From a virus (taxonomy: Duplodnaviria > Heunggongvirae > Uroviricota > Caudoviricetes), in the IMG/VR virus record IMGVR_UViG_2534681999_000015: DNA of 6,618 bases; one strand, 5' to 3'. The notes under the pieces were generated by a model that was not told the DNA's origin, did not search any database, and saw nothing but the letters and a program-made list of their open reading frames with translations. A program made the translations under genes and the position numbers. Below, in pieces: positions 3,600 through 4,334 of this stretch. How positions within the stretch are numbered: the first letter of the stretch is position 1; every line of letters begins with the position of its first letter.

Positions 3600-4334
3600 A
3601 TGGAGACTGTTTTTGACGCACTGAAAGCGATGGGAAAAGCCACGTCGGTATAGCTGGCTGCGCGACTTGATATCAGTCGTGAAGAAGTACTGAACGAGCT
3701 GTGGGAACTGAAAAAGGCTGGCTTCGTTGATAAAAGCGTATACACCTGGCGTGTGGCTGATAACAACGTTCAGCAGGAACAGCCAGCGCCAGAAGAAACC
3801 ACCACGGCAACAGAAGCGAAAATCTCAGAGTGCGATTTAACCGCGACGATTGAACAACGCGGACCACAAACGGCGGATGAACTGGCTACGCTGTTCGGTA
3901 CAACATCCCGCAAAGTTGCTTCAACGCTGGCAATGGCAATCAGCAAAGGTCGTCTGATTCGCGTAAACCAGAACGGTAAAATTCGTTACTGCATACCAGG
4001 TGATAATTTACCAGCAGAGCCGAAAGTTGAATCGGTAGCGGAAACCGATGGTAAAGCCTTTCCTCAGCCAGCCGGTGTTGCGTTACCGGTACAGAAAGAT
4101 GCAACACAGGAAGATATTAAAACAGAAACTGTGGCGGACATTGTGCAGTCGCTGCCATCGTTTACTGCAACGCGAGAAGATGATTTGATTTTGCCATCGC
4201 TGCATATGGCAAATCGCGAACTGCGTAGGGCGAAGAATCATGTCCAGAAGTGGGAGCGAGTCTGCGCCGCGCTGCGGGAGCTGAACAAGCACCGGGATAT
4301 GGTTGCCGGGATTTGTCGGAAGTCCGGGCAATGA
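3600..4334 (+). pseudogene. Tandem winged-helix-like DNA-binding protein gene interrupted by an in-frame amber (TAG 3651-3653) at codon 18
   Basis: Strong SD GGGAGG (3588-3593) with a 6-nt spacer to ATG 3600. Frame reads [58 protein letters not shown]... and continues without further stops to 4334 (the track ORF 3753..4334 is its GTG-initiated tail). The stop falls inside the first helix-turn-helix-like unit, which has a second copy at [40 protein letters not shown]; by that alignment the TAG replaces a residue aligning with E (GAG). Confidence 0.55.

Follow-up and report, generated by a model that had tools for sequence, protein, structure and literature searches.

A probable lineage-fixed nonsense mutation in a YdaW/DUF1627 family gene of the Escherichia coli O157:H7 ompW prophage

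Introduction

The only experimental hint about the function of the YdaW family comes from Escherichia coli K-12, where overexpression of ydaW emerged from a screen among the prophage genes that block RcaT, the toxin of retron-Sen2 (bioRxiv 10.1101/2020.06.22.160242). Prophages of the ompW class, in turn, have been surveyed across STEC and EPEC strains, including O157:H7 Sakai, and those examined are all reported to be defective, carrying multiple gene inactivations (PMC8112680).

Here we consider a gene at positions 3600-4334 of a 6,618-nucleotide stretch of DNA (hereafter, the window), whose frame is interrupted by an in-frame TAG at codon 18. The original prediction, made from the letters alone, had offered as explanations a recent nonsense mutation in a decaying prophage regulator, a gene dependent on amber suppression, a leader peptide followed by reinitiation at GTG 3753, or a sequencing error. 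These readings are weighed below against homologues, genome distribution, translation signals and a structural model.

Results and Discussion

The reading frame and its interruption

The opening of the frame by a Shine-Dalgarno element and an ATG was borne out, as GGGAGG at 3588-3593 precedes ATG 3600 and is predicted to form a duplex of -10.3 kcal/mol with the 3' end of 16S rRNA. The frame does run into a TAG after 17 codons (codon 18, 3651-3653), and normal termination permits only the 17-residue peptide METVFDALKAMGKATSV from ATG 3600. The claim that the frame stays open thereafter also held, with a correction to the count, the "227 more codons" being 226 sense codons and reaching 227 only when the final stop is included; in total, positions 3600-4334 translate as 245 codons with that stop. 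The features of the gene are listed here.

3588..3593, plus strand: Shine-Dalgarno GGGAGG, seen in the sequence, with a 6-nt spacer to ATG 3600; homologues keep the same element
3600..3650, plus strand: ancestral ATG (3600-3602) and first 17 codons, METVFDALKAMGKATSV, from translation, alignments and model
3651..3653, plus strand: amber TAG, codon 18, a G-to-T transversion at 3651 having replaced GAG (Glu18)
3654..4334, plus strand: part of the gene past the TAG, still open for 226 sense codons up to TGA 4332-4334, in the same frame as ATG 3600
3654 to ~3755, plus strand: rest of predicted winged helix 1 (AlphaFold2 model), followed by a linker
3753..3755, plus strand: GTG, first canonical in-frame start past the TAG, without a Shine-Dalgarno; candidate reinitiation site, judged unlikely
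3828-3992, plus strand: predicted winged helix 2 (AlphaFold2 model), followed by a low-confidence region
4194-4328, plus strand: predicted C-terminal long helix (AlphaFold2 model)
4331..4495, plus strand: 54-codon ORF whose ATG overlaps the stop of the DUF1627 gene (ATGA 4331-4334); hypothetical protein WP_001505071.1, with a PHROG 30109 match

Gene family and predicted fold

The gene is a member of the YdaW/DUF1627 family (PF07789, PHROG 630). The protein obtained by reading through the stop scores 308.8 bits against Pfam DUF1627, where the cut-off is 28.1, over residues 84-236 (window 3849-4307), and it matches PHROG 630, a 253-position profile of unknown function, over residues 1-242 (E 6.7e-123). 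Given this Pfam score and the end-to-end PHROG match, the open frame past the stop is not a product of chance.

The two winged-helix-like units that had been read from the sequence are supported at moderate confidence by an AlphaFold2 model of the intact orthologue (overall pLDDT 54.5, domains around 70) and by Foldseek. In the model, the first unit comprises helices 4-11, 16-23 and 27-39 and is followed by a low-confidence linker, while the second comprises helices 77-87, 92-99 and 103-115 together with a beta hairpin at 120-131 (strands 120-124 and 127-131); the C-terminal part consists of a low-confidence stretch and then a long helix at 199-243. Positions 3600..3650 thus encode helix 1 and the beginning of helix 2 of the N-terminal winged helix, and codon 18 is placed in the second helix, which makes it reasonable that the stop falls within the first unit, as had been proposed.

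Foldseek returned only winged-helix proteins (ScpB, MarR, ArsR/CadC, FeoC), with no match against the PDB at E below 3e-3 and a best BFVD match of 2.7e-4, while sequence and profile searches of solved structures gave nothing below E 0.15. Profile matches to HTH_20 (residues 4-44, E 2.4e-5) and FeoC (residues 80-126, 1.3e-3) are weak and below family thresholds, winged helix 2 matches Ren-like exclusion PHROGs weakly (E 1.5e-3), and PADLOC and NCBIfam scans gave sub-threshold helix-turn-helix matches only. With generic winged-helix matches and a model of this low confidence, no functional assignment was drawn from the fold. Family members look like putative dimeric proteins of the phage early operon that would bind nucleic acid through tandem winged helices.

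Prophage setting and neighbours

In O157:H7 PV15-279 the gene order is cI-like repressor, Cro-like regulator, YdaT-family protein, O-like replication gene with a DnaT domain, replication protein P, DUF1627 gene, 54-aa ORF, fimbrial pseudogene, paa and hokD. The prophage integrase abuts a fragment of ompW about 6 kb beyond the repressor, and this position identifies the element as the lambda-like ompW prophage of E. coli O157:H7. A place directly after the replication gene (P or DnaC-like) is shared by the DUF1627 gene at all eight phage loci (8/8) and at the O157 and O55 loci; in the phage homologues, LygF/Ren-like/DUF977 or Ead-like genes are next downstream. The neighbours in the window are as follows.

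854-1261, minus strand: cI-like repressor, immunity region
1338-1565: Cro/CI-family gene, immunity region
1549-2100: YdaT-family 'toxin' gene, overlapping the Cro/CI-family gene
1997-3112: O-like (DnaT-domain) replication gene, open in the window
3105..3566, plus strand: replication protein P gene, end of the replication module, from the RefSeq annotation of the identical O157:H7 sequence; the ORF ends at 3566
4500-5033: fimbrial-protein pseudogene, cargo like paa, with a frameshift and an internal stop in the RefSeq annotation
5194-5952: adhesin gene paa, cargo between the DUF1627 gene and hokD
6141-6290: sok, Rfam match of 103.9 bits
6288-6443: hokD, Ile17 allele versus Thr in the O55:H7 copy (base 6337)

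The immunity region (window 854-2100) is of Rac-like type, and sok and hokD form a hok/sok type I toxin-antitoxin locus at 6141-6443. The Rfam scan gave nothing within 3600-4334, its sole match being sok, and a promoter and terminator scan of 3300-5300 gave counts no higher than those of shuffled sequence and no meaningful placement.

Decay is also apparent in the neighbours, where the fimbrial gene is a pseudogene and the O-like gene is broken independently, in three ways, in sister strains. The latter has a 22-nt deletion in O55:H7 USDA5905 (window 2489-2510), a 1-nt deletion at 2628 in strain 493/89 and an IS1203 insertion in PV15-279. The amber codon represents one further documented defect in a prophage class already described as defective.

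Origin and age of the amber codon

Eleven phage records of O145:H28 ompW prophages align to 781 bases of the window at 99.9%. The one that was fetched, PPompW_132418, contains an intact 735-nt CDS of 244 codons, and its sole mismatch to the window in 781 nt is at 3651, where T in the window makes the codon TAG and G in the phage makes it GAG (Glu). In O55:H7 USDA5905, the syntenic prophage likewise has GAG and an intact 735-nt CDS (WP_000450692.1, 244 codons), and TAG is present in both O157 strain 493/89 and O157:H7 PV15-279. Glu at codon 18 is found in 8/8 phage homologues, down to 76% nucleotide identity, and is invariant in a 30-sequence alignment in which conservation across the family is highest over the first 60 residues. 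Among the best 120 cluster representatives of a search that gave 2,727 significant proteins, 117 have Glu18, the other three lack the position, and none has a stop. As the check proposed for the 244-codon read-through translation, this comparison returned continuous relatives with Glu (GAG) at position 18.

The distribution of the two alleles across 5,426 complete E. coli genomes was followed with an 81-mer centred on codon 18. An exact match to the TAG version is present in 293 complete genome records, and the 11 TAG matches listed are O157:H7 or without a serotype label, 493/89 being one of them. The exact GAG 81-mer is present in 266 records, including O145, O111:H8 and ETEC strains, and the more divergent copies, among the matches listed, are each one mismatch nearer to GAG than to TAG. 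Many complete E. coli O157:H7 chromosomes match the window at 100% over the 901 bases around the gene. O55:H7 is the lineage ancestral to O157:H7, and 493/89 is a member of the early-branching sorbitol-fermenting O157 clone. With GAG in O55:H7 and TAG in 493/89, the mutation occurred after the O55/O157 split and before 493/89 split off.

Taken together, these alignments indicate that the TAG is a derived point mutation, from GAG to TAG, for which both the direction and the lineage distribution can be traced. The gene has a premature stop where its orthologues have a sense codon and the direction of change can be deduced, which is one mark of a nonsense pseudogene; family members have an uninterrupted frame of about 240-260 codons starting METV..., and here that frame is broken by the TAG at codon 18. 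The first of the offered explanations, in which a regulator-like gene of a decaying prophage has recently acquired a nonsense mutation, is thus supported by uninterrupted homologues with Glu (GAG) and by the defective nature of the prophage class.

That the TAG reflects a sequencing or assembly error, or that the 17 codons are a separate leader peptide before a gene starting at 3753, has practically negligible probability, as the bare sequence pattern is all that speaks for either. The error is excluded by the identical TAG 81-mer in 293 complete genome records, and this part of the original prediction is abandoned. As to the leader, homologues have their start codon at the position matching 3600 or upstream of it, with one at the CTG equivalent to 3654, and none of those examined starts at the equivalent of 3753. 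In addition, codons 1-51 compared with Rac-SA53 (89% nucleotide identity) show eight synonymous and no non-synonymous changes besides the stop, in line with purifying selection, and PHROG 630 is matched at full length. A separate short ORF would have been indicated by homologues uniformly starting at 3753 behind an unrelated upstream region; instead, the pattern of conservation over the 51 upstream codons is that of coding sequence. From the homologue starts and this conservation it follows that the first 17 codons are part of the ancestral protein, and a leader ORF with an independent gene is refuted by homologues that continue from the equivalent of ATG 3600.

A second disruption in the remaining 680 nt was sought and not found in the copies compared. 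Over about 6.5 kb, just 7 substitutions and 3 indels separate the window from the O55:H7 prophage, and it is this youth of the mutation that accounts for the 226 downstream codons being still open. The lack of a second disruption is expected for a young mutation, but would also be compatible with a truncated product that is still functional.

Consequences for translation

As the initiation signals are intact, translation should begin at 3600 and end after 17 residues. We consider it highly probable that the locus is an ordinary, lineage-fixed nonsense pseudogene in a decaying prophage and not an unusual coding mechanism. A G-to-T change at 3651 in the O157 lineage turned Glu18 (GAG) into an amber codon, and ribosomes would still start efficiently at ATG 3600 and terminate after 17 residues, within helix 2. 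The full-length protein is presumably not made, and translational coupling to the overlapping 54-codon ORF, if any, would be lost, with possible polarity.

Ribosomes that terminate at the TAG might also reinitiate, either at CTG 3654 (226 aa) or at GTG 3753 (193 aa), and give an N-terminally truncated protein that would keep winged helix 2 and the C-terminal helix. Such a protein could retain a function or acquire one, for instance as a dominant-negative partner for paralogues that are intact. E. coli ribosomes are known to reinitiate after termination, no further stop interrupts the frame, the CTG abuts the stop, and residues 84-236, which make up the entire Pfam DUF1627 match, are encoded past either start. 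RefSeq, moreover, models the gene in this way, as a 226-aa CDS (WP_077744273.1) that starts at CTG 3654, the codon right after the TAG, and has no pseudogene flag, which counts against the pseudogene reading. We regard reinitiation nevertheless as quite unlikely. Neither start has a usable Shine-Dalgarno, the pairing with the anti-Shine-Dalgarno being -3.0 kcal/mol for CTG 3654 and -1.5 kcal/mol for GTG 3753 versus -10.3 kcal/mol for ATG 3600, and none of the in-frame starts past the TAG (NTG or ATH) pairs better than -5 kcal/mol. In E. coli, translation initiates very poorly at CUG. Furthermore, the truncated architecture is present in no natural homologue except carriers of the same TAG, and it would lack the first winged helix, where the family is most conserved; that the frame is still open is explained by how recent the mutation is. 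The proposal of a leader peptide with reinitiation at GTG 3753 thus lacks both a ribosome-binding site and any homologue so built, and RefSeq most likely placed the start at CTG 3654 through homology-driven start picking, an artefact of annotation.

Amber suppression or near-cognate read-through of UAG, yielding a low level of full-length protein with another residue at position 18, appears extremely unlikely as an explanation of the locus. E. coli has a basal level of UAG read-through, the signals for initiation are undamaged, and the TAG persists in at least 293 genome records and also within a mosaic with a different 3' end; on the other hand, read-through in the wild type usually stays well below a few percent, and the scan for tRNA genes found none within the 6.6-kb window. 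The stop is not conserved beyond one lineage, with Glu invariant elsewhere: none of 120 relatives has a stop, and TAG occurs in one group. A conserved or programmed use of the amber codon, as implied by an amber-suppression-dependent gene, is thereby excluded.

Other broken, deleted or mosaic copies

Several further copies differ from both the window and the intact orthologues. In another O157:H7 prophage, a second DUF1627 paralogue carries a contraction from A8 to A7 at about codon 38, with a frameshift inside the first winged helix and the remaining frame intact, and RefSeq flags it as frameshifted; it lies after a DnaC-like ATPase gene and before a DUF977 gene and is identical in the two strains in which it was seen, SS17 (L015:1501-2270) and TB21-1 (L016:1501-2270). 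In a Logan contig from the metagenomic run ERR14980420 (L014:1696-2418), which otherwise has two mismatches to the window over 4.2 kb, a 12-nt in-frame deletion (GTATAGCTGGCT, equivalent to window 3648-3659) removes exactly codons 17-20, including the TAG site, and leaves an open gene of 240 codons. This deletion could be read as selection to restore the gene, a point against simple decay; it may have arisen on a TAG or a GAG background, or be an assembly artefact.

In GCA_051684065.1 (L012:1202-1897), the TAG-bearing 5' part (window 3600 to ~4149) is joined to a 3' end that is divergent and belongs to the 249-aa type, and a DUF977 gene comes next; this copy is a recombinant mosaic with the amber. 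Strain 493/89 (L011) differs from the window at 3554-3608 by 6 substitutions and 2 indels across the stop of P, the intergenic stretch and the first codons; most of these differences match alleles of the Rac-SA53 type, which suggests a small gene-conversion tract, with the TAG retained. The paralogue break, the contig deletion and the mosaic fit ongoing decay and recombination among resident lambdoid prophages.

As two paralogues are cut in the first winged helix, it is conceivable, although very unlikely, that the early inactivation of DUF1627 genes in O157:H7 is something other than neutral decay. If this were true, there would be selection in lysogens against the full-length DUF1627 protein, or for N-terminally truncated forms or forms made by low-level slippage or read-through, and the selected forms would modulate replication or defence-related functions of co-resident prophages.

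Implications for annotation and typing

Our analysis corrects the current annotation. In hundreds of O157:H7 genomes, RefSeq lists the gene as intact, with a 226-aa product named 'DUF1627 domain-containing protein'; behind this entry is hidden what is really, on these comparisons, a nonsense-mutated copy of a 244-aa gene. In addition, T at 3651 is a clean derived marker that distinguishes the O157 strains examined, including 493/89, from O55:H7 and also from other serotypes carrying the same ompW prophage. The amber in this ydaW-family gene is real, and it is an ordinary feature that does not point to new biology.

Comparison with known systems

The gene in the window resembles YdaW of the K-12 Rac prophage in family, in sequence around codon 18, where the K-12 81-mer is 90-91% identical, and in its place right after the replication genes (ydaV-ydaW in Rac records). 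The K-12 copy is likewise considered a pseudogene in a cryptic prophage and is viewed as C-terminally truncated; the window gene differs from it in being cut at codon 18 by a point mutation and complete in its remainder.

Both N-terminal units are predicted, at low model confidence, to fold like winged-helix DNA-binding proteins (MarR, ArsR/SmtB and FeoC, and ScpB as a tandem case), with profile matches below family thresholds and no solved-structure match at E below 3e-3.

Closest of all are the ompW-prophage orthologues of O55:H7 and O145:H28 (WP_000450692.1 and BCI49274.1), which are identical to the window over 781 nt except for base 3651. The O55:H7 prophage also has the same neighbours, namely P, the 54-aa ORF, the fimbrial pseudogene, paa and hokD. 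Both orthologues differ from the window gene in having GAG (Glu18) and a full protein of 244 aa.
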